Assembly (NCBI GenBank): GCA_964527275.1
Contig: CAZGPF010000001.1
Span: forward strand, 1 to 30,200
Direction of reading: 5' to 3'
DNA: 30,200 bases
Source: an uncultured Desulfosarcinaceae bacterium
GTDB taxonomy: Bacteria > Desulfobacterota > Desulfobacteria > Desulfobacterales > Desulfosarcinaceae
The notes beneath the pieces are model-generated. The model was given only the letters and a program-made list of their open reading frames with translations. It searched no databases and was not told the DNA's origin. Below, piece after piece: positions 98-21,611 of the stretch. A program made the translations under genes and the position numbers. The first letter of the stretch is position 1; each line of letters opens with the position of its first letter.

Positions 98-1885
98 ATG
101 GGTAAAATTAAGATGACCACTGAAGAGGCCTTTGTGAAGATCCTGCAGATGCATGGAATCGAACATGCGTTTGGTATCATCGGTTCGGCTTTTATGCCGA
201 TATCCGACCTTTTTCCCAAAGCAGGGATCACCTTCTGGGATGTCGGACATGAAGGTAACGCCGGCATGATGGCGGACGGATTTACCCGCGCCTCCGGCAA
301 AATGTCCATGATGATCGCCCAGAACGGCCCCGGCATCACCAATTTCGTGACACCGGTTAAAACCGCCTACTGGAATCACACGCCCCTGCTGCTGGTCACT
401 GCCCAGGCGGCCAATATGACCATGGGTCAGGGTGGTTTCCAGGAGGTCCCCCAAATGGCTGTCTTTGAAGAGATGGTGGCCTACCAGGAAGAGGTCTTAC
501 ATCCCTCCCGGATAGCGGAGGTCCTCAGCCGGGTGATCGTGCAGGCCAGAAGGGCGTCCGCCCCGGCCCAGATTAATATCCCGCGGGACTTCTGGACCCA
601 GGTTATTGAGATTGAAATGCCCGCCAGCGTTGAATTGGAGTGTCCGGCCGGCGGCGAGGAGGCCATTGCCCAGGCGGCCGAACTTCTGTCCAAGGCAAAG
701 TTCCCGGTGATCTTGAACGGCGGTGGCGTGGTTATCGGCGGCGCCATTCAAGAGACCGTGGCCCTGGCTGAACGGCTGGACGCACCAGTATGCTGCGGCT
801 ATCAGCACAATGATGCCTTTCCGGGCAGCCATCCGCTGTTCGCCGGTCCTTTGGGCTACAATGGCTCCAAGGCCGGAATGCAGCTCATATCCAAGGCCGA
901 TGTGGTATTGGCTCTCGGCACGCGTTTGAATCCTTTCTCCACACTGCCGGGCTACGGCATCGATTACTGGCCAAACAAGGCTTCCATTATCCAGGTTGAT
1001 ATGAACCCCAATCGTATCGGCCTGACCAAACCGGTCGCCGTGGGTATTGCCGGAGACGCCAGCAAAGTCGCCAACGCGATTATGGCAAAGCTCACCCCCT
1101 CCGCCGGCGATGATGGCCGTGAAGAACGCAAAGCCGCCATCACAAAAATTAAAGCCGCCTGGACCCGAGAGCTGGCAACCATGGACCATGAAGATGATGA
1201 TCCCGGTACCACCTGGAACCAACGCGCCCAAGAGAGGGACCCTGAAAAAATGACGGTCCGCATGGCATGGCGCGCCATCATCAAGGCCTTGCCCAAAGAG
1301 GCCATCATCTCTTCGGATATTGGCAACAACTGCGCCATCGGCAATGCCTATCCGACTTTCGAGGCGGGGCGCAAATATCTGGCGCCGGGCATGTTCGGAC
1401 CCTGCGGGTACGGATTTCCGGCTATCCTGGGCGCGAAAATCGCCAAGCCCGACGTTCCGGTGGTGGGTTTTGCCGGCGACGGCGCCTTCGGCATCTCGAT
1501 GAACGAGATGACAGCCTGCGGCCGCAAGGAGTGGCCAGCCATTACCATGATCATCTTCCGCAACTATCAGTGGGGGGCGGAGAAACGCAATACCACCCTT
1601 TGGTATGACGACAACTTTGTAGGCACCGAACTAGATATCGCTGTCTCTTACGCCGGCATAGCCAAGGCCTGCGGCATGGAAGGTGTTCAGGTCACCACCC
1701 CGGATGCCTTGACCGAGGCCTTGGACAGGGCCGTCAAGGCTCAGATGGAAGATGGCCGCACGACCTTTATCGAGGTGCTGAACAATCAGGAGCTGGGCGA
1801 ACCCTTCCGTCGTGATGCCATGAAAAAGCCGGTTGTCGCGGCGGGGATCGACAAGCAGGAGATGCGTCCCCAGAAGGGTGTATAA
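98..1885 (+). CDS. xsc: Sulfoacetaldehyde acetyltransferase (ThDP-dependent)
   Basis: 595 aa. N-terminus MTTEEAFVKILQMHGIEHAFGIIGSAFMPISDLFP and QNGPGITNFVT..KTAYWNHTP are typical of Xsc. ThDP motif GDGAFGISMNE..N and C-terminal ELGEPFRRDAMKKPV. AAGGAG Shine-Dalgarno upstream. Confidence 0.93.
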   Translation: MGKIKMTTEEAFVKILQMHGIEHAFGIIGSAFMPISDLFPKAGITFWDVGHEGNAGMMADGFTRASGKMSMMIAQNGPGITNFVTPVKTAYWNHTPLLLVTAQAANMTMGQGGFQEVPQMAVFEEMVAYQEEVLHPSRIAEVLSRVIVQARRASAPAQINIPRDFWTQVIEIEMPASVELECPAGGEEAIAQAAELLSKAKFPVILNGGGVVIGGAIQETVALAERLDAPVCCGYQHNDAFPGSHPLFAGPLGYNGSKAGMQLISKADVVLALGTRLNPFSTLPGYGIDYWPNKASIIQVDMNPNRIGLTKPVAVGIAGDASKVANAIMAKLTPSAGDDGREERKAAITKIKAAWTRELATMDHEDDDPGTTWNQRAQERDPEKMTVRMAWRAIIKALPKEAIISSDIGNNCAIGNAYPTFEAGRKYLAPGMFGPCGYGFPAILGAKIAKPDVPVVGFAGDGAFGISMNEMTACGRKEWPAITMIIFRNYQWGAEKRNTTLWYDDNFVGTELDIAVSYAGIAKACGMEGVQVTTPDALTEALDRAVKAQMEDGRTTFIEVLNNQELGEPFRRDAMKKPVVAAGIDKQEMRPQKGV

Positions 1886-1989
1886 GGCGCAATTTGAAAA
1901 TATGAGAGTTGGCACCATGAGCAGGGGGCTAGCGCCACTTCTCCTGGTGCCGCCTGGAGAATCTTTAGCCCATTACCGGAGACCGAAAA

Positions 1990-3360
1990 ATGATTGATCT
2001 TAGAAACATTCCGTCGTCCAAAGAAGACCTTGACCGCTATGAAGTGGAAAACAATTTCCAGTCATGGTCCTATCAAACCGAACAGTCGCCTCCACGGGTC
2101 GTATCGGCCAAAGGGGTTCGTTTTACAACTGAGGACGGAAGGGAGCGACTCGATTTCAGCTCCTGTTTCGTCAGCCACAACATCGGTCATCAGGACGCAC
2201 GAGTGGTGGATGCGATCTGCGCACAGGCCAGAACCTTGACCTCCTTTGCTCCCAGCATGTCAACAAAACCTCGGGCCCTGTTCGCTAAAATGATGGCCGA
2301 AATCACCCCCGGCGATCTGTCGCGTTCATTCATATCCCTGGGAGGTACCGAAGCCAACGAGGCGGCCGTAAAAATCGCCCACCAGTATACCGGACGGCGC
2401 AAGATTGTGACCCGTTTCCGTACCTATCACGGCGCAACGGCCACATCGATGTCCCTCTCCGCCGGCGATTCCCGTAGCTGGGCCCAGGTGTTGGGAGGCA
2501 CGGAGATAGTTCGCGTGCCCCAGCCGTACTGCTACAGGTGCATGTTCGGCCAGAAATATCCAGACTGCGATCTGCAATGCGTCAAGTATGTCGATGAGGT
2601 CATTGAGCTGGAGGGGGGCGGTGACAAGGTGGCCGGCATCATTTGTGAGCCGGTAACCGGCGCCAACGGCATTATCGTCCCTCCGCCGGAGTATTTTCCC
2701 GAACTGCGCAAAGTTTGCGATAAATGGGGCGCGCTGCTGATCGCCGATGAAGTGATGACCGGATTCGGCCGCACCGGCAAATGGTTTGCAATGGATCATT
2801 GGGATGTGGTGCCCGACATCATGACCCTGGCCAAGGGCATGACCTGCGGCTATCAGCCACTGGGCGTCACCATCGTACGTACGCATATCGGCGAGCGGTT
2901 CAAGGGACAGTTCTTCAGCCACGGGGCTACCTACGCCGGCCATGCGCTGGGTTGCGCTACGGCCTTGTCCCTCATACCCATCTATGAGGAGGACAATCTC
3001 ATCGAAAACTCCGCCAGGCTGGGCGAGTATCTTCTTCAAAGAGCCCTGGAACTCAAGGAGCGGCATGCCTGCGTTGGAGATGTTCGCGGGCTGGGACTTT
3101 TCGTAGGGCTCGAACTGATCAAGAACAAGAAGACCAAAGAGCCGTTGACGGCCGTGGACGCCAAAATCCGGCCGGGCCTGAATCCCAAACTGGAAATCGC
3201 CAAAAAACTTGGTGAATTGGGGATCATGGCCATGGCCGCCAATCCTGTAAACGTTATCGCCCTGGCGCCGCCGCTTATCATTACCAAGGACGAAATCGAC
3301 GAAGGTATTGAGAAAATAGACAAGGCCCTCGAAGTCGGTGACGGCTATGTCGAGGAGTAA
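1990..3360 (+). CDS. Class-III PLP aminotransferase, putative taurine/aminosulfonate transaminase
   Basis: 456 aa with GGTEANE, YHGAT, EPVTG, LIADEVMTGFGRTG, PDIMTLAKG (PLP lysine) and GDVRGLGLF. The substrate is inferred only from its position directly after xsc. Confidence 0.85.
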   Translation: MIDLRNIPSSKEDLDRYEVENNFQSWSYQTEQSPPRVVSAKGVRFTTEDGRERLDFSSCFVSHNIGHQDARVVDAICAQARTLTSFAPSMSTKPRALFAKMMAEITPGDLSRSFISLGGTEANEAAVKIAHQYTGRRKIVTRFRTYHGATATSMSLSAGDSRSWAQVLGGTEIVRVPQPYCYRCMFGQKYPDCDLQCVKYVDEVIELEGGGDKVAGIICEPVTGANGIIVPPPEYFPELRKVCDKWGALLIADEVMTGFGRTGKWFAMDHWDVVPDIMTLAKGMTCGYQPLGVTIVRTHIGERFKGQFFSHGATYAGHALGCATALSLIPIYEEDNLIENSARLGEYLLQRALELKERHACVGDVRGLGLFVGLELIKNKKTKEPLTAVDAKIRPGLNPKLEIAKKLGELGIMAMAANPVNVIALAPPLIITKDEIDEGIEKIDKALEVGDGYVEE

Positions 3361-3460: not shown

Positions 3461-4183
3461 ATGCAAAAGGGAATTCGACACACTAGCGGCGGCCTGTTGG
3501 AATTGAGATCATTAAGAGAACAGGTATACGATTACCTTCGTGAGGAGATGCAAAGCGGCAGGCTATTGTCCGGGTCGCTAATCAAGCCTAAGGAGATAAG
3601 TGAAAAGCTAGGCATCAGCAAAACGCCCCTTAGAGATGCGCTCATTCAGATGGAGTGTGAAGGGTTTGTCTCCATACTGCCGCGCCGTGGAGTCAGGGTT
3701 CGCAAGCTAAACATAGAGGACATCAAGAACATCCTGGAAGTTATAGGCGCCCTGGAAAGCGCGGTGGTGCTCTCGGTTTTTCCGCAGCTTGACACCACCC
3801 ATATCGAGGCCCTGCGAGGGTTGAACAACAAGATGGCCGTGGCCATCGAGGATGAAGACTTCAAGAGCTATTACGACCTGAATATCTCCTTTCACAATGT
3901 CTTTTTGCAGCTATCTGAAAACAACACCATGCATGGGATACTCATGCCGCTGAAACAGCGCTTATACGACTTTCCGCGCCGTGCCTATATAAAGGAGTGG
4001 GAGCTGATCAACTGTGAGGAGCATGCCCAGTTTATTGAGTTTATCGAAAAGGGTGACCCCCAGAGAGCTGCCGCCCTGATGCGAGACTTCCACTGGTCTT
4101 TTGAGGCCTATGAAAAGTTCATCCGGCGTTTCTACTTCGGCTCCGAGAAACGCATTGAGTCTGAACTGGCCTGGTGCAAATGA
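3461..4183 (+). CDS. GntR-family (FadR/FCD-type) transcriptional regulator
   Basis: wHTH segment LREQVYDYLREEM..ISEKLGISKTPLRDALIQMECEGFV..PRRG, followed by an FCD-like domain (NISFH, EEHAQFIE). ATG 3461 chosen because GGAGG lies upstream; the ORF track starts at 3422. Confidence 0.88.
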   Translation: MQKGIRHTSGGLLELRSLREQVYDYLREEMQSGRLLSGSLIKPKEISEKLGISKTPLRDALIQMECEGFVSILPRRGVRVRKLNIEDIKNILEVIGALESAVVLSVFPQLDTTHIEALRGLNNKMAVAIEDEDFKSYYDLNISFHNVFLQLSENNTMHGILMPLKQRLYDFPRRAYIKEWELINCEEHAQFIEFIEKGDPQRAAALMRDFHWSFEAYEKFIRRFYFGSEKRIESELAWCK

Positions 4184-5412
4184 CGAGCGACAAGCAGACT
4201 AATAAGCATATTTTAGTTGTCAATGCAGGCAGCTCCTCCGTCAAATTTACCCTCTTCCAAAAAGAAGATCTGCGGATGGTTGCCGAAGGTCTTGTTGAGC
4301 GCATCGGCCATCGCAACACTCAGGTGCTTTACAAAACCTCAGCGGGCGTGCGCGTAACCCGTAAGACGAAGGTTAGAGAGACGCGGGAAGCCGTTGAACT
4401 GGCAGCCGATATCATCATGGACAAGGATTGCGGAGTAATACAATCCAAGGCCGAGATCGGCGCTATTGGTCACCGGGTCGTCCATGGCGGCGAATATGTG
4501 AAAGAGGCCGCTGTTATCGATGAGCGTCTCACGGAGATCATCAGGGATTGTTTCGATCTGGCGCCGCTGCACAATCCCCCAAACCTGAAAGGCATTGAAG
4601 CCTGCCAGGAGCTCTTCCCCGGCGTTGCCCAAGTGGCCGTCTTTGATACAGCCTTCCATGCCAATCTGCCGGAGCATGCCTTTCTCTATGGTTTGCCTTA
4701 TGACCACTACCGGGAATACAAAATCCGCAGGTACGGCTTCCATGGCACCAGCCATAAATATGTGAGCCGCAAAGCTGCGGAAATGGTTGAACAGCCGCTT
4801 TCAGCCTTGAAGATGGTTACCTGTCATCTGGGTAATGGCTGCAGCATGGCGGCGGTCAATGAGGGCCGCAGCATCGACACCAGCATGGGGTTGACGCCTT
4901 TGGAGGGGCTGATCATGGGAACGCGTTGCGGTGATATCGATCCGAGCATCCCCCTCCACCTGATGCGCCGGCACAAAATGAGCCCGGAGCAGGTCGAAGA
5001 TCTGCTAAATCGGCAAAGTGGTCTGCTGGGTCTGGGCGGCATCGGGAGCAGTGACATGCGGGACATCGAGGCCGCTATCATCGCCGGCAACCGGCAAGCG
5101 GCAACGGCGGTACGGATTTTGGCATACCGGATCAAAAAATACATCGGCGCCTACACCTTTGCCATGGGGGGGCTCGATGTCATTGTTTTTACCGCCGGTG
5201 TCGGCGAGAATTCGGCCCTGATGCGCGCAAAGATATGCCAGGGGCTGGAACAGATGGGGATCGTAATCGATCAGGCGCTCAATGCAGCCCAAGAGCCGCA
5301 ATGCCGCCAGATCCAGTGCGAAGATGGCAGGGTGAAAATAGTGGTTATGCCCACCAATGAAGAGCAGGAGATTGCACTGCAGGTTATGGGCGTGCTTGCC
5401 GCGCCAACCTAG
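4180..5412 (+). CDS. ackA: Acetate kinase
   Basis: Motifs ILVVNAGSSSVKF, GHRVVHGG, APLHNP, FDTAFH, YGFHGTSH, HLGNGCS, GTRCGDID and FTAGVGEN. The ATG at 4180 overlaps the gntR stop (ATGA). Ends in TAG. Confidence 0.95.
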   Translation: MTSDKQTNKHILVVNAGSSSVKFTLFQKEDLRMVAEGLVERIGHRNTQVLYKTSAGVRVTRKTKVRETREAVELAADIIMDKDCGVIQSKAEIGAIGHRVVHGGEYVKEAAVIDERLTEIIRDCFDLAPLHNPPNLKGIEACQELFPGVAQVAVFDTAFHANLPEHAFLYGLPYDHYREYKIRRYGFHGTSHKYVSRKAAEMVEQPLSALKMVTCHLGNGCSMAAVNEGRSIDTSMGLTPLEGLIMGTRCGDIDPSIPLHLMRRHKMSPEQVEDLLNRQSGLLGLGGIGSSDMRDIEAAIIAGNRQAATAVRILAYRIKKYIGAYTFAMGGLDVIVFTAGVGENSALMRAKICQGLEQMGIVIDQALNAAQEPQCRQIQCEDGRVKIVVMPTNEEQEIALQVMGVLAAPT

Positions 5413-5494: not shown

Positions 5495-6463
5495 TCATGA
5501 CTTCAATTTCCGCAACTGCTCTGTCACGGCCGGAACCATCTCGAACAGATCGCCGACGATGCCGTAATCGGCATACCTGAAGATCGGGGCGTCTGCATCC
5601 TTGTTGATGGCCACGATCACATCGGAGTTGCGAATGCCGGCGATATGCTGAATGGACCCGGAGATGCCGCAGGCAAAGTAAATTTTGGGCGTGACCACTT
5701 TGCCTGTCTGTCCCACCTGGTCCGACACCGGCCGCCAACCCTCGTCCACGGCGTTTCTGGAGGCCCCGATGGCACCGTTGAGTTCGGCTGCCAGCGCTTC
5801 CAGAATGCTGTAATCTGGGCCGGCCATGCCGCGGCCGCCAGAGATAACATAGTCGGCTTCTGTGAGCTCTAATTTGCCGCTGGTGTCGATCTTCTTCTCC
5901 ACGATGCGGGTGCGGATATTCTCCACCATGGCTTGGGCCGTTTCAACTTCGGCGCTATCGTTTGTCTCCACGATTTTGGCCACGTTGGGGCGCAACAGGG
6001 CCAATTTAGGTTTACCATCGATACGCGTGCGGCTGACCACCTTGCCGCCATAAAGCGCCCGGGTGGCCACCAGCTCTCCATCCTCAAGTTCAAGGGCGGA
6101 GCACTCGCAGGCTAGGCCAGTGTCCAACCGCGCCGCCAAGCGGGCAAAAAGGTCCTTGCCGAATACCGAAGAGGCGGCCAGCACGATTTGTGGTCCAATG
6201 CTCTCAATGGCGGCTTCCAAGGTGTCGGTGTAGGCGTCCGTGGAGTAGTCGGCCAATTGCGGTGCGTCGGCGGCGAATACCTTTTTGGCGCCGTATTTTC
6301 CCAGTTCGGATGCCATCTCAGTCACACCAGCGCCCATAACCACGGCGATCAGCTCACCTTCCAACTGGTCGGCCAGGCGGCGGCCTTCACTGACAACCTC
6401 GAAGGCGCTCTTTCTGAATATGCCGTCAACCTGTTCTGCGAATACAACTATTGTTTGAGCCAT
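5495..6463 (-). CDS. etfA: Electron transfer flavoprotein alpha subunit
   Basis: 322 aa from MAQTIVVFAE (ATG at 6463, AGGGAG upstream). FAD-binding motifs SGGRG, ASRNAVDEGW, QVGQTGK, GISGSIQH and AINKD..APIF. Confidence 0.93.
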   Translation of the reverse strand: MAQTIVVFAEQVDGIFRKSAFEVVSEGRRLADQLEGELIAVVMGAGVTEMASELGKYGAKKVFAADAPQLADYSTDAYTDTLEAAIESIGPQIVLAASSVFGKDLFARLAARLDTGLACECSALELEDGELVATRALYGGKVVSRTRIDGKPKLALLRPNVAKIVETNDSAEVETAQAMVENIRTRIVEKKIDTSGKLELTEADYVISGGRGMAGPDYSILEALAAELNGAIGASRNAVDEGWRPVSDQVGQTGKVVTPKIYFACGISGSIQHIAGIRNSDVIVAINKDADAPIFRYADYGIVGDLFEMVPAVTEQLRKLKS

Positions 6464-6503: not shown

Positions 6504-7292
6504 CTATAGCACCTCGTCCGCCTGCAGGCACTTGACCAGCTCAGCGGCCTTGTCCACCACCGTCTCTCCATCGATGATGCGACCGGGCTCTCTTTCCGGC
6601 GGCCGGGCCAAGGAGCAAATGGCCACCTTGGCGCTTTGCGGGCCGACCTCGGCGGCTGACACCTCCAGGTCGGATAGCGGTTTTTTGACCAAGGGTTTTT
6701 TCTTAGCCCGCATGATGTTGGGCAGCGAGGCATACCTAGGCTCGTTGATCCCTCGCTGGGTGGTCAGCACGACCGGCAGATCCGCCTCCACAACCATTAT
6801 GCCGCCCTCCACCAACTGTTCGCAAGTGATGCGTCCGTCGGTGATCTCCTGTTTGGTCACGAAATTAATCTGGGGCAGATCGAGATATTCGGCCACCGCA
6901 GCCGGTACCTGGTAGCTGTCGTCATCCACAGCCCGGATGCCGGCGAGGATCAGGTCGTGGGGAACGGTTTTGGCAGCCGCAGCCAATATTTTAGCAGTGC
7001 CCAGGGCATCGCTGCCTTCGGCGGCTGGATCTTCGATGAGCAAGGCTTCGTCGGCACCCATGGCCAGGGCGGTGCGCAGGGCCGCTTCGCAGCGGCGTGG
7101 CCCCACGGAGAGTGCCGTTACCTTTCCGTGGCCGATCTTTTCTTTGATCCGCAACGCCTCTTCAAGGGCCAGCTCATCATAAGGATTGATAATCCATTTG
7201 ACGTTTTGGGTCTTCACTGTTGCGGTCGCGGTGTCGACCTCCATCAGGGACTCGGTGTCAGGAACTTGTTTGACTAATACGATGATGTTCAA
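6504..7292 (-). CDS. etfB: Electron transfer flavoprotein beta subunit
   Basis: MNIIVLVKQVPDT, INPYDELALEEAL, ALAMGAD, AGIRAVDDDSYQV and INEPRYASLPNIMRAKKK. TTG start with AAGGAG upstream. Ends in TAG. Confidence 0.93.
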   Translation of the reverse strand: MNIIVLVKQVPDTESLMEVDTATATVKTQNVKWIINPYDELALEEALRIKEKIGHGKVTALSVGPRRCEAALRTALAMGADEALLIEDPAAEGSDALGTAKILAAAAKTVPHDLILAGIRAVDDDSYQVPAAVAEYLDLPQINFVTKQEITDGRITCEQLVEGGIMVVEADLPVVLTTQRGINEPRYASLPNIMRAKKKPLVKKPLSDLEVSAAEVGPQSAKVAICSLARPPEREPGRIIDGETVVDKAAELVKCLQADEVL

Positions 7293-11711: not shown

Positions 11712-11904
11712 ATCACTCCCCTTGCCGTTGCGTAATTGAATGTCGCCCATGGTGATCGTCCTGTATTCCGCGAAAAACTCGCCCTGAAAGTGTCGCCCGG
11801 TACACATATGTAACGTAACAGGGTTGTAAAATGTGACACCCCGCTGCCCACAAAACCGGATTTCGTTATTAGCGTCTCTATCTGAATTTATCTCTCTATT
11901 CAAA

Positions 11905-11927: not shown

Positions 11928-11938
11928 GCAGTTTGATA

Positions 11939-11953
11939 TGGCACGCTATTTGT
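11939..11953 (+). promoter_or_regulatory. Candidate sigma-54 (-24/-12) promoter for the transporter/methyltransferase arm
   Basis: TGGCAC-GCTAT-TTGT versus the consensus TGGCAC-N5-TTGC: perfect -24 element and one mismatch at -12. About 65 nt upstream of the tauB-like start. Confidence 0.5.
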
Positions 11954-12018
11954 AAAATATAGCATGAAACGTCGTTCGATCTTTAATTTTTTTTTAGCCA
12001 GGCCACGGGAGGCGCATA

Positions 12019-12834
12019 GTGGATAATAGACCAAAAGAGAGTGAACTCCGGGTTGAAAATTTGAGCATGACTTATCGTACTGAAACCGGTGACGAGGTAC
12101 ATGCCTTGGAAGACATCAATTTCACCATGGACAAAGGCAACCTGGTGGTAGTGGTGGGGCCCTCGGGCTGCGGCAAAACCACGTTGCTGAACACCATCGC
12201 GGGGTTTCTGACGCCCACCGGAGGACGGATCGTCCTTGATGGCGAGGTCATCGAACGGCCTGGGGCCGAACGCGGGGTGGTGTTTCAGAAGGGCGCTCTG
12301 TTCGAATGGCTAACGGTATATGAGAATGCCGTATTCGGCCTGAAAATGCGAAACGTTGACGAAAAAAAGCGCCACGAGAGGGTTATGGAGTACCTCGACC
12401 TGGTCGATCTGACCGACTTTACCGACACTCCCATCTACAATCTTTCCGGTGGCATGCAGCAGCGCGTGGCAATTGTGCGCTGTCTGGCCAACAATCCTTC
12501 CATTCTGCTGATGGACGAACCCCTGGGAGCCCTGGATGCCCTCACCCGCGAAAAGATGCAGACGCTGATCCTGCGGATCTGGCAGGAGACCGGCAAAATG
12601 GTCTTTTTTATTACCCATAGCGTGGAAGAAGCCATTTATCTGGCTACCGACCTTTTCGTCATGTCGGCCCGCCCCGGCCAGATCATGAAGCGCTACGAGC
12701 TCGATTTCTGCCGCCAGGGATTGGAAAAAGACCCGCGTGAGCTGAAATCGGCCGCCGACTTCATCGCAATCCGCGAGGAGGTGCTGGGACTGATCTGGGG
12801 TATGGAAGAGGAAACCGAGGCGCATGCGACCTGA
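12019..12834 (+). CDS. tauB: ABC transporter ATP-binding subunit, TauB/SsuB family
   Basis: Walker A GPSGCGKTT, VFQ Q-loop, signature LSGGMQQ, Walker B LLMDEP and H-loop ITHSVEEA. GTG start with GGGAGG upstream. Confidence 0.85.
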   Translation: MDNRPKESELRVENLSMTYRTETGDEVHALEDINFTMDKGNLVVVVGPSGCGKTTLLNTIAGFLTPTGGRIVLDGEVIERPGAERGVVFQKGALFEWLTVYENAVFGLKMRNVDEKKRHERVMEYLDLVDLTDFTDTPIYNLSGGMQQRVAIVRCLANNPSILLMDEPLGALDALTREKMQTLILRIWQETGKMVFFITHSVEEAIYLATDLFVMSARPGQIMKRYELDFCRQGLEKDPRELKSAADFIAIREEVLGLIWGMEEETEAHAT

Positions 12835-12981: not shown

Positions 12982-13998
12982 ATGAAGTTTCGCAAAGCAT
13001 GGTTAGTGGTTGGTTTAATCCTTATCGCGCTGGTGACTGTTTTCTGTCTGGGCAGTCCGGCCGTGGCTAAAACGAAGAAAGTAACAGTTGCCTATTTTCC
13101 GGGCTGGCCGGGAACCTTTGAATTCGGTTGGGCAAAAGGATGGTTTGACAATGAGATGGGCGTCAAGGTCGACTTCCGCGAGTTTGGTTCTGGAGCGGAG
13201 ATGACTACGGCCATGGCTTCGGGGGATATCTCCATCGCCTACGCCCTGGGGACCACGCCGTTTGCCATCGCCGTGACCCAGGGACTGCCCTTGAAAATGG
13301 TTGCGATCTCCGAAAACTACAGCGAATCGGAAAACCTGGTGGTTCGGGGAGGTTCCGGGATTGCTACACCTAGCGACCTGATCGGCAAAAAAATTGGCGT
13401 ACCTTTTGGAACCACGGCCCATTACCGTCTGATGGGTATTCTCGAGATGTCCGGCATTGCCGAACAAGATGTTAAGGTTATCGACCTCAGCAATCCCGAC
13501 ATCATGCCGGCGTTTATCCGCGAGGATATCGACGGTGGCTGTGCCTGGGAACCCACTGTCAGCCAGATGATTGAAAAAGGCGGCCACATCCTGGTCTCTT
13601 CCGCCGATCAGATCAAGGCGGGGTACAGCACTTATGGTATCGTCGCGGTTACCGATGAGTTCGCCAATGAACACGGCGATCTGGTGACCAAGTTTCTCCA
13701 GGTGGTGAACAGATCCACCGTCACCTACCACAAGAATCCCAAGTCCACTTATGCCGCCATCGGCAAAATGGCTGGTATCACACCTGAGAAGACAAAAGAT
13801 ATCATGAGCACTATGGGCTTTTACGACAAACAGACCCAGTTGAGTGATGCCTGGCTGGGAACCAGCGCGGAGCCGGGCCAGATCGTTCACAATATCAAGA
13901 AGGTCAGTGATTTTCTGGTGCAACAAGGGGCCATGGACAAGTCCCTGCCCGATTATGGCAAGTTTATCGATGCTAGCTTCATGGAAAATGTAAAATAA
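12982..13998 (+). CDS. tauA: ABC transporter substrate-binding protein, TauA-like
   Basis: Signal peptide, then VAYFPGWP..GVKVDFREFGSGAEMTTAMASGDI, DLIGKKIGVPFGTTAHY and IDGGCAWEP, which resemble marine-type TauA. The exact ligand is unproven. Confidence 0.75.
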   Translation: MKFRKAWLVVGLILIALVTVFCLGSPAVAKTKKVTVAYFPGWPGTFEFGWAKGWFDNEMGVKVDFREFGSGAEMTTAMASGDISIAYALGTTPFAIAVTQGLPLKMVAISENYSESENLVVRGGSGIATPSDLIGKKIGVPFGTTAHYRLMGILEMSGIAEQDVKVIDLSNPDIMPAFIREDIDGGCAWEPTVSQMIEKGGHILVSSADQIKAGYSTYGIVAVTDEFANEHGDLVTKFLQVVNRSTVTYHKNPKSTYAAIGKMAGITPEKTKDIMSTMGFYDKQTQLSDAWLGTSAEPGQIVHNIKKVSDFLVQQGAMDKSLPDYGKFIDASFMENVK

Positions 13999-14128: not shown

Positions 14129-14905
14129 ATGACCAAACTGGTGCTGGAAAAGACAACTTATAGCTATCCTGAGAAGGGGAGCGGAGCGGGGCGCAGGGGA
14201 GACTTGGCGGAGACCAATCTTCACCTGGAAGCGGCCACGATCACGGCGGTAGTCGGCGCCGCTGGTGCGGGCACCAACACTTTGTTGAACCTGATCGCCG
14301 GTCTGATACAGCCCACCGAAGGTCGTGTACTCTGGAAGGGGCAACCGGTGACTGACCAGAGCCCCGACCGGAGCGTCGTTTTCCATCAGAGCGCCCTCTA
14401 TCCGTGGTTGTCCGTGGCCGAGAATATCGAATTCGGCCTACAAAACCGGAAGATGCGGCGACGGGAGCGCAAAATGCGCGTGGCCGAATATCTAGATCGC
14501 TTCTATCTTACCAAGAAAGCCAACCAGCCAGTTTATCAGGTCAAAGACCACCACGACCTTATTCTGATAAGCTTTGCCCGTTGTCTGGCGAGAGAACCGG
14601 AATTGGCGCTTATCGGAGACGAGCCGTTGAGTCAGATCAACGACCGGTTCCGCAACAGGCTACGGAAGGCCCTGCTCAAGTTCTGGTCGGATAAGCAAAC
14701 GATGCTGATGCTGTTCACCAGCGATGTGGAAGAAGCGCTGCTTATGGCCTCGAAGATTTTCATCATGAGCGGACGTCCCGGCAGGATCGTGAGGCAACTT
14801 GAAGCTGATTTTTGCAACCAGGTGCGGAGTGACGGGGTAGATGCCGTTCGTCATGTGACCGAATTCAGGCAGATGCGAAGGGATGTGCTCCGCCAAGTGA
14901 TCTGA
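14129..14905 (+). CDS. TauB-like ABC ATPase paralog with degenerate catalytic motifs
   Basis: Intact 258-aa frame that aligns by eye with 12019-12834 (DRSVVFHQSALYPWLSVAENIEFGL; IMSGRPGRI). Walker A reads GAAGAGTNT, the LSGGQ signature is replaced by VYQVKDHHD, and the H-loop reads FTSDVEEA. Confidence 0.8.
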   Translation: MTKLVLEKTTYSYPEKGSGAGRRGDLAETNLHLEAATITAVVGAAGAGTNTLLNLIAGLIQPTEGRVLWKGQPVTDQSPDRSVVFHQSALYPWLSVAENIEFGLQNRKMRRRERKMRVAEYLDRFYLTKKANQPVYQVKDHHDLILISFARCLAREPELALIGDEPLSQINDRFRNRLRKALLKFWSDKQTMLMLFTSDVEEALLMASKIFIMSGRPGRIVRQLEADFCNQVRSDGVDAVRHVTEFRQMRRDVLRQVI

Positions 14906-15025: not shown

Positions 15026-15889
15026 ATGGAAGATCTTCTGGCCAGAATTAAATCACTCTTGGGCTTTAAAGCCGACGATGATTTCGAAAAGAAGAAGACC
15101 GTCAAATTCGGTGATCCCTCCGCCAGCGGACAGGGACGCAAGTGGAGTATTGTAAGTATCCTCGCCCTGCTGATCACCTGGGTGGTAATCTGCGAACTGG
15201 AGGTCGTTCCTCCGCTCTTCTGGCCTTCGCCCATGGCGGTGCTGGAGAAATTTTACATGATCGCCGTGGAAGGCTATCGCGGCCACACGCTGTTTGGGCA
15301 CTTTGCGATTAGCCTGTATCGCGTTATGTCCGGTTTCTTGCTAGGTTGCTTCTTCGGCGTGCTGCTGGGAATCACCATGGGTCTGAGCAGCATCGTACGC
15401 GGCCTGTTCGACCCCATCATCGAGCTCTACCGGCCGGTTCCTCCGCTAGCTTATATTCCCATCATCATCATCTGGATGGGGATCGGCGATAGCGGCAAGA
15501 TCATGCTCCTGTTTTTGGCCACCTTCGCCATCATGGTGATCAACGCCCGTTCGGGGGTGCATTCGGTTACGGTCGAGAAGATCCACGCCGCCTACTCCCT
15601 GGGGGCGACGCGTTGGCAAGTCCTGCGACATGTCATACTAGTCAATGCCCTGCCGGAGATCTTCACCGGCATGCGTGTCTCCATGGGGGTCTGCTGGGCC
15701 ACCCTGGTAGCGGCCGAAATGGTGGCAGCCACCGCGGGCATCGGCTGGATGGTTCTCAATGCGGCCCGCTACCTGCGAACCGACATTGTGATCATGGGCG
15801 TGATCGTCATGGGCGTGATTGGATACGGCTTCGACCTGATCATGCGGCTGATGGAGAGGAAATTGATCCCCTGGAGGGGCAAGACCTGA
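15026..15889 (+). CDS. tauC: ABC transporter permease, TauC/SsuC family
   Basis: Hydrophobic segments plus PLFWPSP, SLYRVMSGF, RPVPPLAYIP, the EAA-like HAAYSLGA, LPEIFTGMR and LVAAEMVAA. Confidence 0.85.
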   Translation: MEDLLARIKSLLGFKADDDFEKKKTVKFGDPSASGQGRKWSIVSILALLITWVVICELEVVPPLFWPSPMAVLEKFYMIAVEGYRGHTLFGHFAISLYRVMSGFLLGCFFGVLLGITMGLSSIVRGLFDPIIELYRPVPPLAYIPIIIIWMGIGDSGKIMLLFLATFAIMVINARSGVHSVTVEKIHAAYSLGATRWQVLRHVILVNALPEIFTGMRVSMGVCWATLVAAEMVAATAGIGWMVLNAARYLRTDIVIMGVIVMGVIGYGFDLIMRLMERKLIPWRGKT

Positions 15890-15956
15890 TGACGGGCCGC
15901 GACACCCGAGCCAACACAAAAATCAACACAAAAAATAGCTAACGGATTGTTTTATC

Positions 15957-16754
15957 ATGATTATCATCGGAGAACTGATAAACGCCAGCCGCAAGGCAAT
16001 TGGCGCGGCAATTGAGGCTGAAGACTCGGCCAGTATTCAAAAGGTAGCCTTGGATCAGGCGGAAGCCGGCGCGAACTACATCGATGTCAACGCAGGTATT
16101 TTCGTGGGCAAGGAGCCGGCTTATCTCAAGTGGCTGATCAGACAGGTCCAGGCTGTAACAGACAGGCCCTGCGCTATCGACAGCCCTGATCCCAAGGCCA
16201 TCGAAGCGGCGTTGGAGGTCCACCAGGGCACTCCCATGATCAACTCCATCTCTCTGGAGAAGGAGCGCTACGAAAACCTGCTGCCCATCATCGCCAACAG
16301 CGACATGAAAGTCATCGCCCTCTGTATGAGCGATGATGGTATGCCCGAAACCGTTGAGGACCGGTTGAAAATTGCTGACAAGCTGGTCAACGGCTTGCTG
16401 CAAAAAAATGTTGCCATCGGCAACATCTACGTCGATCCGCTGGTGCAGCCCATGAGCGTCAACAACAACTTTGGCGTGGAGTTTGTCAACTCCGTGGAAA
16501 AGATCGTCAACTATTTTCCGGGAATCCATACAGCCTGCGGCTTGTCGAACATCTCCTACGGCCTGCCGGCCCGCAAATTCTTGAATCAGATATTCATGGT
16601 CATGGCCATTGCCAAGGGGCTGGACGGTGCTATCGTTAATCCTCTGGACAAGAGGATGATGGCCAATATCGTGGCCGCCGAAGCACTGGCGGGTCAGGAT
16701 AGTTTCTGCATGAACTACATCAAGTCCTACCGTTCAGGCTTGCTGGATGGTTGA
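15957..16754 (+). CDS. Methyltetrahydrofolate:corrinoid methyltransferase (pterin-binding, AcsE/MtgA-like)
   Basis: MIIIGELINASRK, GANYIDVNAG, AIDSPDP, MINSISLE, VDPLVQP, GLSNISYGLP and AIVNP. Confidence 0.88.
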   Translation: MIIIGELINASRKAIGAAIEAEDSASIQKVALDQAEAGANYIDVNAGIFVGKEPAYLKWLIRQVQAVTDRPCAIDSPDPKAIEAALEVHQGTPMINSISLEKERYENLLPIIANSDMKVIALCMSDDGMPETVEDRLKIADKLVNGLLQKNVAIGNIYVDPLVQPMSVNNNFGVEFVNSVEKIVNYFPGIHTACGLSNISYGLPARKFLNQIFMVMAIAKGLDGAIVNPLDKRMMANIVAAEALAGQDSFCMNYIKSYRSGLLDG

Positions 16755-16772
16755 CTATGAGGGAGGTCCGGC

Positions 16773-18203
16773 ATGACCATTGCCTCCGATTTCAAGCTGC
16801 TCGATAAAGCATCCCTCAACCGCATTCACGAAGCGACAATGGACGTCCTGGCCAATACCGGGATCGTCTTTCGTGGCGCCGAGGCGCTGGAACACTTTCG
16901 TCACCACAATGTGCGCGTGGACGGTCAGACCGTGTTCATCAACCAGGAGATCCTCGACCGAGCACTTGCCTCCGTGCCCGATGCCTTTCACTGGGCGGCC
17001 CGCAACCCCGAACGCTCAATCCTTGTAGGCCAAGGGCAAGAGGGCGTGCATATCAGCATGAACAATGGCCCCATCCATGTCCAGGACTTGGAGGGCGGGC
17101 GCCGGGCCGGTACCCTTGAGGATCTGGTAAACTTCTACAAGTTGGGTCAGCAGCTCCGCACCTGCGGCATCGTCGGTCAGATCCCGGTGGATCCTTCCGA
17201 CTTAAAAGGTAAGCAGCGGCACCTGGAGATCTTTTACCATTTGCTGCGGCATACCGACAAACCGCTATGCGGGTATGTGGGTACACAGGCCGAGATCGGC
17301 CAGATGTTCGATATGCTGGCCATCGCTTACGGCGGGGAGGACCCCTTCAAGGAGAGACACCTGATCGCCGTGTCGCTTAACCCGCTGAGCCCGCTCAAGT
17401 ACGACGAAATTCCCTGTGAAACTCTGCTGGCCTATGCCAAGCGACGGCAGCCGGTGATGGTGCTGACCTGCGCCATGTCCGGTGTTACCGCGCCAATACA
17501 ACCCCTGGGAACCGTGGTCCTGCAGAACGCCGAGATCTTGGCGGGCCTGGTGCTCTCCCAGCTGGTCAACCCGGGCACTCCCTTTGTCTACTCACCAGCA
17601 TCCGCCGTGCCCAACATGCGGACCGCCGGGTATGTGACCGGCATGCCTGTAAGTACCATGATCAACATGGCCGGCATTCAACTGGCCAAGGAGTTGTACC
17701 ACCTGCCCACCCGCTGCATGGCAGGCCTGACCGATTCCAAGACCGTCGATTGCCAGGCCGGGTATGAGACCATGCAGAACTTCCTTATGCTGGCCATGGC
17801 CGGCGTGAACATGGTCAACGAGTGCTATGGCCTGCTCGATGCCATCATGACCGTGTCGTACGAGAAGTTCATCATCGATGATGAACTATTAGATCGCGTG
17901 GCCTGCCTGTTGAAAGGTTTCGAGGTCTCGGACGAGGCCCTCTCCCTGGATGTGATCAAAAGCGTCGCCCATGACGGTGCCTATCTCACCCATCTAAGCA
18001 CTATGCAGGAGTGTCGCAAAATCTGGGCGCCTACGGTTTCGGATATGGACACCTATGCCGCCTGGGAGAAGGCGGGCTGTCCAGACATCGTTGCCCGTGC
18101 CGGCCAACAGGTTAAGACCACTCTTGCCCAATGCCCGGAGAGCATGCTCGACGACGATACGGAGCGCGCTTTGCAAGCCTACCTGGAAAAGAACCAAGTT
18201 TAG
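16773..18203 (+). CDS. Non-pyrrolysine MttB-superfamily methyltransferase (MtgB-like, quaternary amine:corrinoid)
   Basis: 476 aa with IHEATMDVLANTG, NPLSPL, APIQPLGTVVLQNAEILAG, PGTPFVY and FIIDDE. PTRCMAG-L-TDSK has Leu at the Pyl-equivalent position. Ends in TAG. Confidence 0.88.
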   Translation: MTIASDFKLLDKASLNRIHEATMDVLANTGIVFRGAEALEHFRHHNVRVDGQTVFINQEILDRALASVPDAFHWAARNPERSILVGQGQEGVHISMNNGPIHVQDLEGGRRAGTLEDLVNFYKLGQQLRTCGIVGQIPVDPSDLKGKQRHLEIFYHLLRHTDKPLCGYVGTQAEIGQMFDMLAIAYGGEDPFKERHLIAVSLNPLSPLKYDEIPCETLLAYAKRRQPVMVLTCAMSGVTAPIQPLGTVVLQNAEILAGLVLSQLVNPGTPFVYSPASAVPNMRTAGYVTGMPVSTMINMAGIQLAKELYHLPTRCMAGLTDSKTVDCQAGYETMQNFLMLAMAGVNMVNECYGLLDAIMTVSYEKFIIDDELLDRVACLLKGFEVSDEALSLDVIKSVAHDGAYLTHLSTMQECRKIWAPTVSDMDTYAAWEKAGCPDIVARAGQQVKTTLAQCPESMLDDDTERALQAYLEKNQV

Positions 18204-18409
18204 CCAAATGCGGAAACTGTAATAGACTTCAAGCATTAAGGATAGATGGAGTCTCCGGTAAAGATGCCCGGTCCGGGGATACAACTAAAACCGGGGTGGA
18301 CCAACATAGAAACAGGAGGAGCTGAAGAGAACCGTTGAAGTAGGAGTAATGGTCAACGAGCCGGCTTGCTATGCACACCGGCTGATATTTACCCATGGGA
18401 GGTTTAATC

Positions 18410-19888
18410 GTGAAACGCAACCTGTATGCGGGATTCCTGCAAAGCGGGGGGTTGAGCCTGAACATGTTTACCGACGACGAACTGGAGGCCATTCATCTGG
18501 CCACCATGCAGGTGCTCCAGCACACCGGTGTCTTCTTCGAGGACGAAGAGGCCCGGGATATACTGGCTGGCAGCGGCGCTACCGTCGATCCGGAAAGCAA
18601 GGTGGTCAAATTTCCCCCCTATCTGGTGGAGGATGCCATCCGTTCGGCGCCCTCCAAAGTTTTGTTGGCCGGGCGCGACCCGGACAACGATTATGTGTTG
18701 GAGAAGAACCGCGTGGGCTTCACCAACTTTGGCGAGGGCATCTCGATTTTTGATCTGACGTCGGGAGATCTGCGCGAGACTGTGAAACAAGATGTAGCCG
18801 ATAGCGCCGTCATCGTCGATTACCTCGACGGCGTCGATGTCTATGAACGGGCGGTAGGCGCCCACGATGTGCCTCAGGCGGTCCAGCCTCTGCACAATGC
18901 CGAAGCCTTTCTGGCCAACACCACCAAGCACTGCTTTCACGGCGCCGGTAACGGCCGCCTGATGAGGGCCGCCATCGACATGGCCGCGACCATCGTGGGC
19001 GGGCGGGACAAGCTAAAGGAGCGGCCGATCATCTCCTTTAACACCTGTCCCATCAGTCCCCTCAAGCTGGTCAGCGACTGTACCGAGGTCATTGTGGAGG
19101 GTGCCCGCTCCGGCGTGATGGTCAATGTATTGACCCAGGCCCTGGCCGGAGGAACGGCACCAGTGACCCTGGCCGGCACTTTGGTTGTACACAATGCCGA
19201 GGTTCTGGCCGGTATAACCCTCGGGCAGTTGACCCACAAGGGTACGCCGATGATGTACGGCAGCTCAACCTGTCCGCTCGATTTGAAAACTGCCACTGCC
19301 ACGGTGGGTTCGCCGGAGTGTGGCATGATCAATGCCGGGGTTGCCAACCTGGCCAACTATTACGGGCTGCCCAGCTGGGTCGCCGGTGGCTAGGCTGACA
19401 GCAAATTAGCTGACGGCCAGGCTGCCCATGAGAAGACGCTCTCAGGCCTCTTGACAGCGTTGGCAGGCGCCAACCTGATTTACGGTCTGGGGATGCTCGA
19501 ATCGGGCGTTACATTCGATTTTGGCCAGCTTGTCATGGACAACGAGTTTGCGCGGATGATCAAATGCGTCGTCAACGGAATTCCCGTGAACGACGAAACG
19601 CTTGCGGTGGATGTGATTGATACGGTAGGACCCTTTCAACAATTCCTCACGCAAAGGCACACATTCGATCATATGCGCAAGATGTCGCAGCCCAAATTGA
19701 TGGACCGCAAGGTACGCGACAAGTGGCAAAAGGACGGCGGGCGTTCAATGCATGAAAAAGCCATGGACGAGGCCCGGCGGATTCTCGCCGAGCACAAGCC
19801 CAAACCGTTGCCCGAAGACGTACTGAGTAAAATGCGCTCCATAGTTGCCGAAACGGAAGAAGAGCTTGGAGTCAAACGCGAGGCATGA
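18410..19888 (+). CDS. mttB: Pyrrolysine-containing trimethylamine:corrinoid methyltransferase (TAG 19391-19393 read as Pyl, residue 328; 492 aa)
   Basis: The track ORFs 18395-19393 and 19451-19888 share one frame, joined by an open stretch that reads GLPSWVAGG-[TAG]-ADSKLADGQAAHEKTLSGLLTALAGANLIYGLGMLE. This is the canonical MttB Pyl context, and the pyl cassette is adjacent. GTG start at 18410 after GGAGG. Confidence 0.93.
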
Positions 19889-19958
19889 CCCACTTTGAAC
19901 TATAGCGTTTATAGAATTGCCGATGTAATACTTTAAGACACTGGATATAGGAGAGACC

Positions 19959-20591
19959 ATGGTAGATTTAAGAAATATCACCGACGCGCTGATCGCCTGC
20001 GATGCCGACCGCGTCATGCAGCTGGTCCAACAGGCCCTGGATAGTGGAATGATGGCCAACGAAGTCCTCAACGACGGTCTTATGGCCGGCATGGATGTGG
20101 TGGGCGACAAGATGGAGAGCGGGGATATGTTCATCCCCGAAGTGTTGATGGCAGCCCAGGCCATGAGCGGGGCTCTGGATGTGTTGAAGCCCCTGCTGGG
20201 CGAGGATCAGAGCACGACAAGCGGTCGGGTGCTCATCGGCACGGTGAAAGGCGATCTCCATGACATCGGCAAGAACCTGGTCTCCATGATGCTGGAGAGT
20301 ACCGGCATGGAAGTACACAACATAGGTGTCGATATCGCGCCCGAGGCATTCGTTTCTGCGATCCAGGAGAAGGATGTCGATATCGTATGCCTCTCCGCCT
20401 TGCTGACCACCACCATGCCGATGATGAAAGAGACCATAGATGCCATCGTGGAGAGCGGTCTACGGGACAAAGTGAAAATCATGGTGGGCGGCGCGCCGGT
20501 GACCCAGGCCTTTGCCGATGAAATCGGGGCCGACGGGTTTGCCCCCGATGCGGGTTCGGCGGCCAAGATGGCCAAGGCTCTCGCGGCCTGA
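19959..20591 (+). CDS. mttC: Cognate corrinoid protein (MttC-like)
   Basis: B12-binding cap (GLMAGMDVVG..GDMFIPEVLMAAQAM), DxHxxG motif GDLHDIGKNLV, LSALLTTTM and VGGAPVT..FADEIGADG. Confidence 0.9.
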   Translation: MVDLRNITDALIACDADRVMQLVQQALDSGMMANEVLNDGLMAGMDVVGDKMESGDMFIPEVLMAAQAMSGALDVLKPLLGEDQSTTSGRVLIGTVKGDLHDIGKNLVSMMLESTGMEVHNIGVDIAPEAFVSAIQEKDVDIVCLSALLTTTMPMMKETIDAIVESGLRDKVKIMVGGAPVTQAFADEIGADGFAPDAGSAAKMAKALAA

Positions 20592-21610: not shown

Positions 21611-21611
21611 C

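Follow-up and report, generated by a model that had tools for sequence, protein, structure and literature searches.

Does a locus that joins N-demethylation genes to taurine desulfonation genes encode one pathway for N-methylated taurines, or are separate pathways merely neighbors? Taurine and N-methylated taurines are osmolytes of marine algae and invertebrates, and N-methyltaurine has reportedly been found in tubeworms. The locus fills a complete 30,200-bp metagenome contig (ENA ERZ3929161 NODE_135_length_30200; G+C content, ~56%), which we analyzed in full and call the window. The closest relatives of its proteins are in metagenome-assembled genomes (MAGs) of the Desulfobacterales/Desulfosarcinaceae; its source is a marine bacterium of the sulfate-reducer type. 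We read the contig, with a probability of roughly 0.45, as a catabolic island whose genes would form an integrated route for trimethyltaurine (taurobetaine) and its demethylation products. The initial annotation had proposed such a route. It is favored by an importer that lacks the taurine-selective Asp205, by the linkage of this importer to one methyltransferase clade, and by parallel clusters in aerobes; against it stand variant loci that have a different transporter and no xsc, as well as a widespread flavoprotein family.

From the open reading frame (ORF) listing and profile searches, we found three gene blocks. Block A, on the plus strand, contains xsc, a class III aminotransferase gene, a GntR/FCD regulator gene, and ackA. 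Block B, on the minus strand, encodes both subunits of an electron transfer flavoprotein (ETF), a flavoprotein resembling dimethylglycine dehydrogenase (DMGDH), and a RACo-type activase. Block C, on the plus strand, encodes an ATP-binding cassette (ABC) importer, methyl-transfer proteins that include an MttB homolog with pyrrolysine (Pyl-MttB) and one without it (non-Pyl MttB), the pyrrolysine genes, and then a sensor/kinase cascade. The features that carry the argument are as follows.

98..1885, plus: xsc, sulfoacetaldehyde acetyltransferase, a thiamine diphosphate (ThDP) enzyme (NF005713, TIGR03457, TPP_enzyme N/M/C domains)
1990..3360, plus: class III aminotransferase, probable taurine aminotransferase, Tpa/Toa-like (PF00202)
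3461..4183, plus: GntR/FCD transcriptional regulator within the xsc operon (PF00392 and PF07729; start from gene call)
4180..5412, plus: ackA, acetate kinase, acetyl phosphate to acetate and ATP (PF00871, 483 bits; TIGR00016, 484 bits, cutoff 293)
5495..6463, minus: etfA, ETF alpha subunit (PF01012 and PF00766; gene call of 322 aa, the listed 412-aa ORF being overextended into etfB)
6504..7292, minus: etfB, ETF beta subunit (PF01012)
7379..9823, minus: DMGDH-like, tetrahydrofolate (THF)-dependent N-methyl amine dehydrogenase, 814 aa (DAO, FAO_M, GCV_T, and GCV_T_C)
9987..11750, minus: RACo/RamA-type reductive activator of corrinoid proteins, 2Fe-2S and ASKHA, 587 aa (PF00111, PF17651, PF14574)
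12019..12834, plus: tauB-like ABC ATPase (PRK11248, 300 bits, cutoff 357)
12982..13998, plus: TauA-like substrate-binding protein, "YG" subclade (TIGR01729, 203 bits, cutoff 304)
14129..14905, plus: tauB2, second, degenerate ABC ATPase (PF00005, merely 63 bits)
15026..15889, plus: tauC-like ABC permease (PRK10160, 272 bits, cutoff 342)
15957..16754, plus: methyl-corrinoid:THF methyltransferase, MtgA/MtrH/AcsE type (PF00809; NF005719, 351 bits, cutoff 259)
16773..18203, plus: non-Pyl MttB-superfamily methyltransferase, predicted quaternary amine:corrinoid (PF06253, 383 bits)
18395..19888, plus: Pyl-MttB, trimethylamine methyltransferase (in-frame TAG at 19391-19393)
19959..20591, plus: corrinoid (B12-binding) protein (PF02607 and PF02310; MtbC/MtgC-type matches below equivalog cutoffs)

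The gene classes named in the initial annotation (importer, methyl-transfer set, flavoprotein with ETF, and aminotransferase-Xsc-AckA) were all confirmed by these searches. Two details of layout were corrected. The importer had been described as co-oriented with the methyltransferases rather than with xsc, and we found that xsc is also on the plus strand. Between the xsc block and the importer lies the minus-strand etf/flavoprotein/RACo block, and it is this block that sets them apart. The importer genes run on directly into the methyltransferase genes and diverge from the minus-strand block across an intergenic region of 116 bp. The unit also does not end at 20591. It continues past that point with tRNA-Pyl, pylS/B/C/D, an OpuAC sensor, and kinases to the end of the contig.

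A taurine-type importer inside the methyltransferase operon

The importer components match the TauA, TauB, and TauC families best, yet all three score below the equivalog cutoffs given above. The tauB product has the Walker A motif GPSGCGKT and the signature LSGGMQQR. In the tauB2 product, the Walker A position reads GAAGAGTN, with no Lys, and the LSGGQ signature is absent; this implies that the importer ATPase would be a heterodimer with one inactive site. A tauB2 gene was present in the window and in loci L002, L009, L100, and L110 (L numbers denote loci retrieved for comparison) and absent from L007/L008 and L171/L175.

The binding protein scored 130 bits against Escherichia coli TauA (6ssy). 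Mapping of the pocket, which rests on an alignment of ~30% identity, placed F39, G41, S70, G71, and G90 of the window protein at Q30, S32, S60, G61, and G79 of TauA and placed E117, T145, W189, Y218, and G219 at E106, T132, W176, L204, and D205. TauA contacts the sulfonate through Q30 and the backbone of G61, G79, and T132 and the amine through E106, T132, and D205, and D205 is reported to confer selectivity for taurine's (ethyl)amine (PMC6906117). We found that G61, G79, T132, and E106 are kept in the window protein, that Q30 is replaced by Phe and D205 by Gly, and that the neighboring L204 is replaced by Tyr. The Tyr-Gly pair is invariant in every member of at least 57% identity, and these members form a tight subclade (57 to 82% identity), which we call "YG". 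Phe-Asp is retained in more distant relatives. Other Desulfobacterales (L028 and L051) have a classical, Asp205-containing TauABC beside the aminotransferase and GntR genes. Because D205 is lost, the importer lies inside the methyltransferase operon, and classical TauABC systems occur elsewhere, we suggest that the cargo is the substrate of the methyltransferase system and not plain taurine. The pocket argues for a ligand with a sulfonate-like tail and a nitrogen that is bulkier or does not hydrogen bond.

We then looked at how these genes are arranged in relatives. In a 99% identical copy and a 78% identical relative of the non-Pyl MttB, the order importer, THF transferase, MttB, Pyl-MttB is kept. 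In at least seven separate lineages (window/L001, L002, L009/L010, L100/L101, L102/L103, L110, and L171/L175), a YG binding protein is encoded beside a non-Pyl MttB of the window's clade, and wherever enough DNA was available, YG members lie beside this MttB clade or beside xsc. Locus L009/L010, from a Desulfosarcinaceae MAG, encodes a glutamate dehydrogenase, the aminotransferase (81%), GntR, and a tripartite ATP-independent periplasmic (TRAP) transporter system, followed by the importer, MttB, and Pyl-MttB. We considered this TRAP transporter as a dedicated taurine importer and dropped it, since it gave generic DctP-family matches only. Locus L007/L008 encodes the importer, a betaine/choline/carnitine transporter (BCCT), an OpuAC protein, PylB, PylC, Xsc (84%), an aminotransferase, and alanine dehydrogenase. 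In L171/L175, the flavoprotein, a sensor cascade, MttB (60%), and Pyl-MttB come before the importer; in L092, MttB (62%) and a BCCT fragment come before Xsc (81%). Thus, xsc or the aminotransferase gene recurs by these genes in differing arrangements (L007/L008, L009/L010, and L092). The gene pair GntR-AckA at the edge of L094 has the same order as in the window. The BCCT fragment of L092 (4173-4808), 211 aa long, covers only the central part of the family profile, and a pseudogene or a break in the assembly may account for it.

Among loci found through MttB, which are phylogenetically nonindependent and include two doubtful positives (L106/L107), a sulfur-linked neighbor was present for 14 of 19 members of the MttB clade (at least 52% identity) and for none of 36 MttB proteins outside it. 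The 14 neighbors were the YG importer in seven cases, Xsc or the aminotransferase in three, and choline sulfatase in four. The doubtful pair speaks only weakly for a link to taurine: a 71% identical aminotransferase lies by Pyl-MttB/MttB there, but the neighbors are a beta-keto-acid cleavage enzyme and peptide-type ABC genes.

Predicted enzymes of demethylation and desulfonation and their control

Xsc scored 1011 bits against NF005713 (cutoff, 620) and 916 against TIGR03457 (cutoff, 676), and it carries all three ThDP-enzyme domains (PF02776/PF00205/PF02775). The aminotransferase gene lies directly downstream of xsc. Its best solved relative is taurine:2-oxoglutarate aminotransferase (Toa; 6jix, 294 bits), and it scored 444 bits against PRK06062, slightly under the cutoff of 472. 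In L009/L010, L051, L028, and L170, the aminotransferase or flavoprotein gene is found together with a gene for a GntR homolog (49 to 66% identity).

The non-Pyl MttB matches PF06253 over residues 6 to 474 in an uninterrupted ORF with no in-frame UAG and belongs to the non-Pyl branch. Its expected partners, the THF transferase, corrinoid protein, and activase, are all present in the window. It scored 307 bits against MtgB of Desulfitobacterium hafniense (9yce/2qne), in which Y97, R312, H348, and F356 form the glycine betaine binding motif; R312 is reportedly conserved in all characterized members, and their substrates are described as acidic quaternary amines (PMC13080624). At these positions, the window protein has N, R, E, and I, so that only the Arg is kept. 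We tried this motif as a discriminator of substrate and rejected it, because N/R/E/I is common to the whole subfamily of 41 to 100% identity, human-gut sequences included. The human-gut contigs (L150-L169) encode a 42% identical non-Pyl MttB ~2 kb from a divergent Pyl-MttB. None of the sulfonate genes that we searched for was found in the DNA retrieved for them, and we guess that a Bilophila-like organism is their source.

Pyl-MttB, whose reading frame contains one TAG codon, in the motif WVAGG*ADSK, scored 409 bits against archaeal MttB (7xcm), as an ordinary ortholog would. The UAG is at the conserved position and is accompanied by a PYLIS element, tRNA-Pyl, and pylSBCD. The features of this part of the window and of its control region are as follows.

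11939..11954, plus: sigma-54-type promoter-like site, TGGCAC-N5-TTGT, 65 nt upstream of tauB
19391..19490, plus: PYLIS element after the UAG codon (Rfam RF02510, PYLIS_3, 74.8 bits, gathering score 38)
20651..20724, plus: tRNA-Pyl, CUA anticodon (ARAGORN)
20765..24889, plus: pylS (catalytic domain), pylB, pylC, pylD (class II aminoacyl-tRNA synthetase core, radical SAM, ATP-grasp, PylD_N)
24938..28660, plus: OpuAC-domain periplasmic sensor and dCache/HAMP histidine kinase (PF04069; PF02743/PF00672/PF00512/PF02518)
28660..30200, plus: hybrid response-regulator/PAS/histidine kinase, open to the contig end (frame translation; 26% match to the receiver domain of the L003 sigma-54 regulator)

In the window, we recognized a pylS gene for the catalytic domain only and no pylSn gene apart from it; a search of Pfam gave nothing for the 115-aa ORF at 24886-25233. 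Because the pylB and pylC ORFs overlap as listed, pylC probably starts later; the sensor gene, too, probably starts later than 24938. Domain searches found no mtbB or mtmB in the window. In an Rfam scan of the window, PYLIS was the sole match, and no cobalamin riboswitch was found.

The flavoprotein has the four-domain architecture of the DMGDH/sarcosine dehydrogenase (SARDH) family, with etfAB directly downstream in the same orientation, and scored 447 bits against human DMGDH (5l46). In L170 (15-7665; a Peptococcaceae MAG), a 72% identical flavoprotein gene and etfAB are preceded by genes for alanine dehydrogenase and a 49% identical GntR/FCD homolog, and the contig ends there. Alanine dehydrogenase and a GntR/FCD regulator are usual companions of taurine:pyruvate aminotransferase. 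The flavoprotein of L172 is encoded together with a TRAP transporter, EtfAB, and an Fe-S/CCG protein. Flavoprotein and Pyl-MttB genes are repeatedly found side by side, and the L175 contig has a second set (15108-20983) of an aminotransferase (34%), a DMGDH-like protein (58%), and Pyl-MttB (56%).

A genome scan with the binding-protein alignment gave 80 tauABC-family loci, whose neighbors within 10 kb we recorded; the aerobic loci among them were all chosen for a TauA-like gene and are a biased sample. Most of what the scan gave was 31 to 41% identical and came from Anaerolineae and from marine Alpha- and Gammaproteobacteria. Xsc (72 to 76% identical to that of the window) was encoded in 23 of the 80 loci and a full-length DMGDH-like protein (48 to 53%) in 16, 9 of which also had Xsc. 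The loci with tauABC, Xsc, and DMGDH-like genes are L018, L022, L026, L027, L031, L033, L041, L048, and L049, and L013, L019, L021, L032, L034, L050, and L073 are grouped with them. The genera with this combination include Hoeflea, Nitratireductor, Pseudovibrio, Flavimaribacter, Aurantimonas, Defluviicoccus, and Neptunomonas. In Pseudovibrio, the flavoprotein gene directly adjoins an aminotransferase gene, and EtfAB is additionally encoded in three gammaproteobacterial loci. In Hoeflea sp. TYP-13 and Nitratireductor sp. XY-223 (L027 and L048), an MttB-superfamily gene (28% to that of the window) lies between xsc/DUF4396 and tauA (L027, 7945-9528, minus strand; L048, ~8116-9444, minus strand), and two DMGDH-like genes, a TauR-type regulator gene, and pta lie at the flanks of the cluster.

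In a neighbor-joining tree, the window flavoprotein grouped with the paralog found in this biased set of aerobic tauABC/xsc clusters, apart from human DMGDH and dimethylglycine oxidase (DMGO). A second DMGDH-like paralog (33 to 36%), present in many aerobic loci, fell outside the group formed by the 48 to 53% paralog and the anaerobic family. The gene content of the aerobic clusters suggests that N-methylated taurines may be used by aerobes through a route that is likewise undescribed: despite the bias of the sample, this is how stepwise demethylation of methylated taurine that feeds Xsc would be expected to look. A further candidate, L043, from an alphaproteobacterial MAG, encodes RACo, a THF transferase, and a corrinoid protein near tauABC-xsc and was rejected because no MttB was within range.

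The sigma-54-like site ahead of tauB is the only match in the window with one mismatch and lies within the divergent intergenic region (11904-12018). Matches with up to two mismatches were at chance level in total, and only the position of the best one is informative, so that a sigma-54 promoter ahead of tauB is suggestive only. A weaker match lies ahead of the flavoprotein gene, and relatives have sigma-54 activators at corresponding places. An OpuAC sensor/kinase pair precedes the MttB tandem in L003, L006, L009, and L171, and L009 shares the hybrid-regulator arrangement. By eye, we noted a perfect palindrome, GCGCATG-N7-CATGCGC, ~15 nt upstream of the sigma-54-like element; it is a possible activator-binding site. 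Counts in a sigma-70 promoter and terminator scan of the window were at chance level, with one weak terminator-like hairpin in the convergent ackA/etfA gap.

One route or clustered modules

We observed enzyme families and their linkage and infer every substrate from them. According to the route that we favor, the TauABC-like importer would take up the zwitterion through a site that keeps the sulfonate contacts and has lost the amine-holding Asp. Through the non-Pyl MttB, the quaternary amine would lose one N-methyl group to the corrinoid protein in its Co(I) state, RACo would re-reduce corrinoid protein that had become oxidized, and the pterin-binding methyltransferase would pass the methyl group to THF. 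The DMGDH-like flavoprotein would convert the remaining N-methyl group or groups to methylene-THF and deliver electrons to EtfAB. The resulting taurine would be transaminated to sulfoacetaldehyde, Xsc would convert this to sulfite and acetyl phosphate, and AckA would form acetate and ATP. Methyl-THF would be oxidized as the electron donor, and sulfite would be reduced as the acceptor, via genes outside the contig; the contig itself encodes no sulfite reductase, no sulfite exporter, and no dehydrogenase for alanine or glutamate. Pyl-MttB would most simply handle free trimethylamine with the same corrinoid machinery. The OpuAC sensor, kinase cascade, and sigma-54 promoter would control the methyltransferase operon, and GntR would control the xsc operon.

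Pyrrolysine is a device that activates nonquaternary amines. Pyl-MttB might take part in a relay of three chemistries, in which the first methyl group (from quaternary trimethyltaurine) falls to the non-Pyl MttB, the second (from dimethyltaurine) to Pyl-MttB, and the last (from N-methyltaurine) to the flavoprotein, with taurine left for Xsc. This would explain the frequent tandem of non-Pyl and Pyl MttB genes and the recurring flavoprotein/Pyl-MttB pairs, and a pyrrolysine enzyme would then act on something other than a simple methylamine. We consider the relay highly improbable.

Several observations weigh against an integrated route. In L003, L006, and L095 (60 to 63% MttB, 72% flavoprotein), BCCT replaces the ABC importer, and no xsc or tauABC was found within 10 kb. 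The module in these loci comprises the flavoprotein, EtfAB, an OpuAC sensor/kinase/sigma-54 regulator, the MttB tandem, pyl genes, the THF transferase, and the corrinoid protein, and between the sister loci L171 and L003 the transporter is the main difference. An MttB subclade of 61 to 62% identity (L090, L091, L094, and L096) is linked to choline sulfatase and not to xsc. The flavoprotein family contains more than 120 clusters at 70% identity or higher from Desulfobacterales and Bacillota and occurs in several contexts, some without visible sulfonate genes (L172). Such wide conservation argues for one common flavoprotein substrate, which could be dimethylglycine/sarcosine or dimethylamine. 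The N/R/E/I pattern excludes the non-Pyl MttB from MtgB by motif, yet it does not point to sulfonate specificity. The xsc operon has its own GntR, the methyltransferase operon appears to be under sigma-54/two-component control, and no sigma-54 site was found in the 97 bp available upstream of xsc. Finally, the choice of aerobic loci by a TauA-like gene limits what their parallel can say for the route. The conserved synteny that the initial annotation had proposed to check held for the adjacency of importer and MttB and for the recurrence of xsc, a positive but mixed outcome; it did not hold for the BCCT variants, which have neither xsc nor tauABC within 10 kb.

Much of this would suit two or three osmolyte modules that are merely clustered, the simpler alternative raised in the initial annotation. 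Methylotrophy on trimethylamine and glycine betaine (or another carboxylate betaine), by way of Pyl-MttB, an MtgB-like enzyme, the corrinoid protein, the THF transferase, and RACo, would then lie beside a separate taurine fermentation or respiration by TauABC, the aminotransferase, Xsc, and AckA. The flavoprotein and ETF would take dimethylglycine via sarcosine to glycine, methyl groups would be the electron donor, and taurine-derived sulfite would serve as the acceptor with no shared carbon skeleton. The methyltransferase/flavoprotein module does stand alone with BCCT in L003, L006, and L095, the flavoprotein family is highly conserved and widespread, the two operons appear to be regulated separately, and Pyl-MttB is an ordinary ortholog of archaeal MttB. 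In marine Deltaproteobacteria, moreover, a non-Pyl MttB by Pyl-MttB has been read as a putative glycine betaine methyltransferase (PMC8318568). What clustering alone leaves unexplained is the TauA-like importer inside the methyltransferase operon in at least seven lineages, several of which have no xsc in the stretch retrieved (sometimes a few kilobases only). It also does not account for the loss of the Asp for taurine's amine, given the classical TauABC by the aminotransferase elsewhere, or for sulfur-linked neighborhoods in 14 of 19 clade members against 0 of 36 others, and three of the four residues that contact glycine betaine in MtgB are not conserved. Control looks modular, which fits either reading, because intracellular taurine could induce the xsc operon in an integrated route too. 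The importer-MttB linkage and the 14/19 count thus weaken the clustered-modules alternative, and we regard it as somewhat unlikely.

The importer and the non-Pyl MttB could also act on another sulfur-containing quaternary amine, most likely choline-O-sulfate, with Xsc, the aminotransferase, and AckA serving taurine from other uptake. Choline-O-sulfate is nearly isosteric with trimethyltaurine. In L090, L091, L094, and L096, MttB is directly followed by a radical-SAM/SPASM anaerobic sulfatase-maturating enzyme, choline sulfatase (Sulfatase and Choline_sulf_C), PylS, and PylC (e.g., L094, 11418-14321), an order that suggests that choline-O-sulfate use is tied to the same methyltransferase clade. 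MthB, one of the characterized MttB members, has an acidic choline ester, phosphocholine, as its substrate, and BCCT and OpuAC-type proteins, typical handlers of choline head groups, belong to the module. We found, however, no sulfatase in the window. In a neighbor-joining tree of MttB, importer-linked members are basal and spread across the whole clade, and the BCCT- and sulfatase-linked groups are nested within it, the sulfatase subclade thus being derived. There is also no evident route from demethylated choline sulfate to Xsc, yet xsc and the aminotransferase gene recur. On balance, choline-O-sulfate seems quite unlikely as the substrate in the window.

A last alternative bears on a single step and could be combined with an integrated route or with clustered modules. 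The flavoprotein and ETF might serve a methylamine branch: once Pyl-MttB had turned trimethylamine into dimethylamine, they would oxidatively demethylate dimethylamine (and methylamine) onto THF in place of the missing MtbB and MtmB. That neither gene is in the window agrees with this, as does the repeated adjacency of flavoprotein and Pyl-MttB genes, including the second pair in L175. But members of the flavoprotein family also occur with no MttB nearby, by a TRAP transporter (L172) or by alanine dehydrogenase and GntR (L170), and TRAP transporters usually carry anionic solutes. The nearest sampled aerobic relatives are, in addition, in tauABC/xsc clusters. We consider a methylamine role very unlikely.

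Relation to known systems

If the integrated methylated-taurine route is correct, a sulfonate would for the first time be a substrate of the MttB superfamily, a family of THF-linked N-methyltaurine/dimethyltaurine dehydrogenases would be defined, and one compound would give a sulfidogen both an electron donor (the methyl groups) and an acceptor (sulfite). Our full-text literature search found no description of such a methylated-taurine route, whether with sulfoacetaldehyde or with MttB, and as far as we found, the fate of N-methylated taurines in anoxic sediments is undescribed. An analogous cluster is present in cultured aerobes (Hoeflea, Nitratireductor, Pseudovibrio, Flavimaribacter, Aurantimonas, and Neptunomonas), and the hypothesis could therefore be approached without cultivation of the Desulfobacterales organism.

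The methyl-transfer genes resemble those of D. hafniense MtgBCA and of Eubacterium limosum MtcB, MtpB, MtyB, and MthB, with the same set of non-Pyl MttB, corrinoid protein, THF methyltransferase, and RamA/RACo activase. Arg312, which pairs with the acidic group of the substrate in MtgB-type systems, is also present in the window protein. In contrast, the similarity to MtgB is modest (307 bits), Y97, H348, and F356 are N, E, and I, and the window gene sits with a sulfonate-type ABC importer, next to xsc. The pyrrolysine part is like the Pyl-MttB/MttC and pylTSBCD systems of Methanosarcina and marine Deltaproteobacteria in its in-frame UAG, PYLIS, tRNA-Pyl, and pyl genes, and a non-Pyl MttB had been noted in such loci (PMC8318568). 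Methyl groups in the window would pass to THF, not to coenzyme M, and the tandem occurs with a taurine-type importer, a flavoprotein, and xsc; the words "taurine" and "sulfoacetaldehyde" appear nowhere in that paper.

In taurine dissimilation, aminotransferase and Xsc act in sequence. Aerobes have tauR-tauABC-xsc-pta clusters, and Desulfonispora thiosulfatigenes reportedly ferments taurine. The window is alike in that Xsc scores above its cutoff, the aminotransferase is Toa-like, and AckA would conserve acetyl phosphate as ATP; it differs in that its importer is below the cutoffs and without Asp205 and in that the module is joined to demethylation genes. The flavoprotein has a four-domain architecture identical to that of DMGDH/SARDH, which work with ETF, and of Arthrobacter globiformis DMGO, and EtfAB is adjacent in the window. 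It differs from DMGDH and DMGO in that the window organism is an anaerobe and in that its place in the tree is with the aerobic tauABC/xsc paralog.

The closest published analogs that we found are the N-methyl-2-aminoethylphosphonate oxidoreductases PbfC/PbfD (PMC10590968), in which a FAD enzyme opens an N-methylated C2 amino acid analog to a core pathway whose entry compound must be the primary amine or the aldehyde. PbfC/PbfD lack a THF domain and oxidize the C-N bond on the ethyl side, with methylamine set free and the aldehyde formed directly. In contrast, the GcvT domain of the window flavoprotein predicts that the methyl carbon would go to THF and leave taurine for the transaminase. Alcaligenes faecalis and Paracoccus versutus are said to use an N-methyltaurine dehydrogenase route that releases methylamine; it follows the same logic as the window and differs in its ethyl-side oxidation, methylamine release, and lack of a THF domain. 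Set against these systems, the window would, if our reading is correct, represent a variant of known chemistry in which the MttB and DMGDH families gain a new class of substrate and are joined to Xsc.

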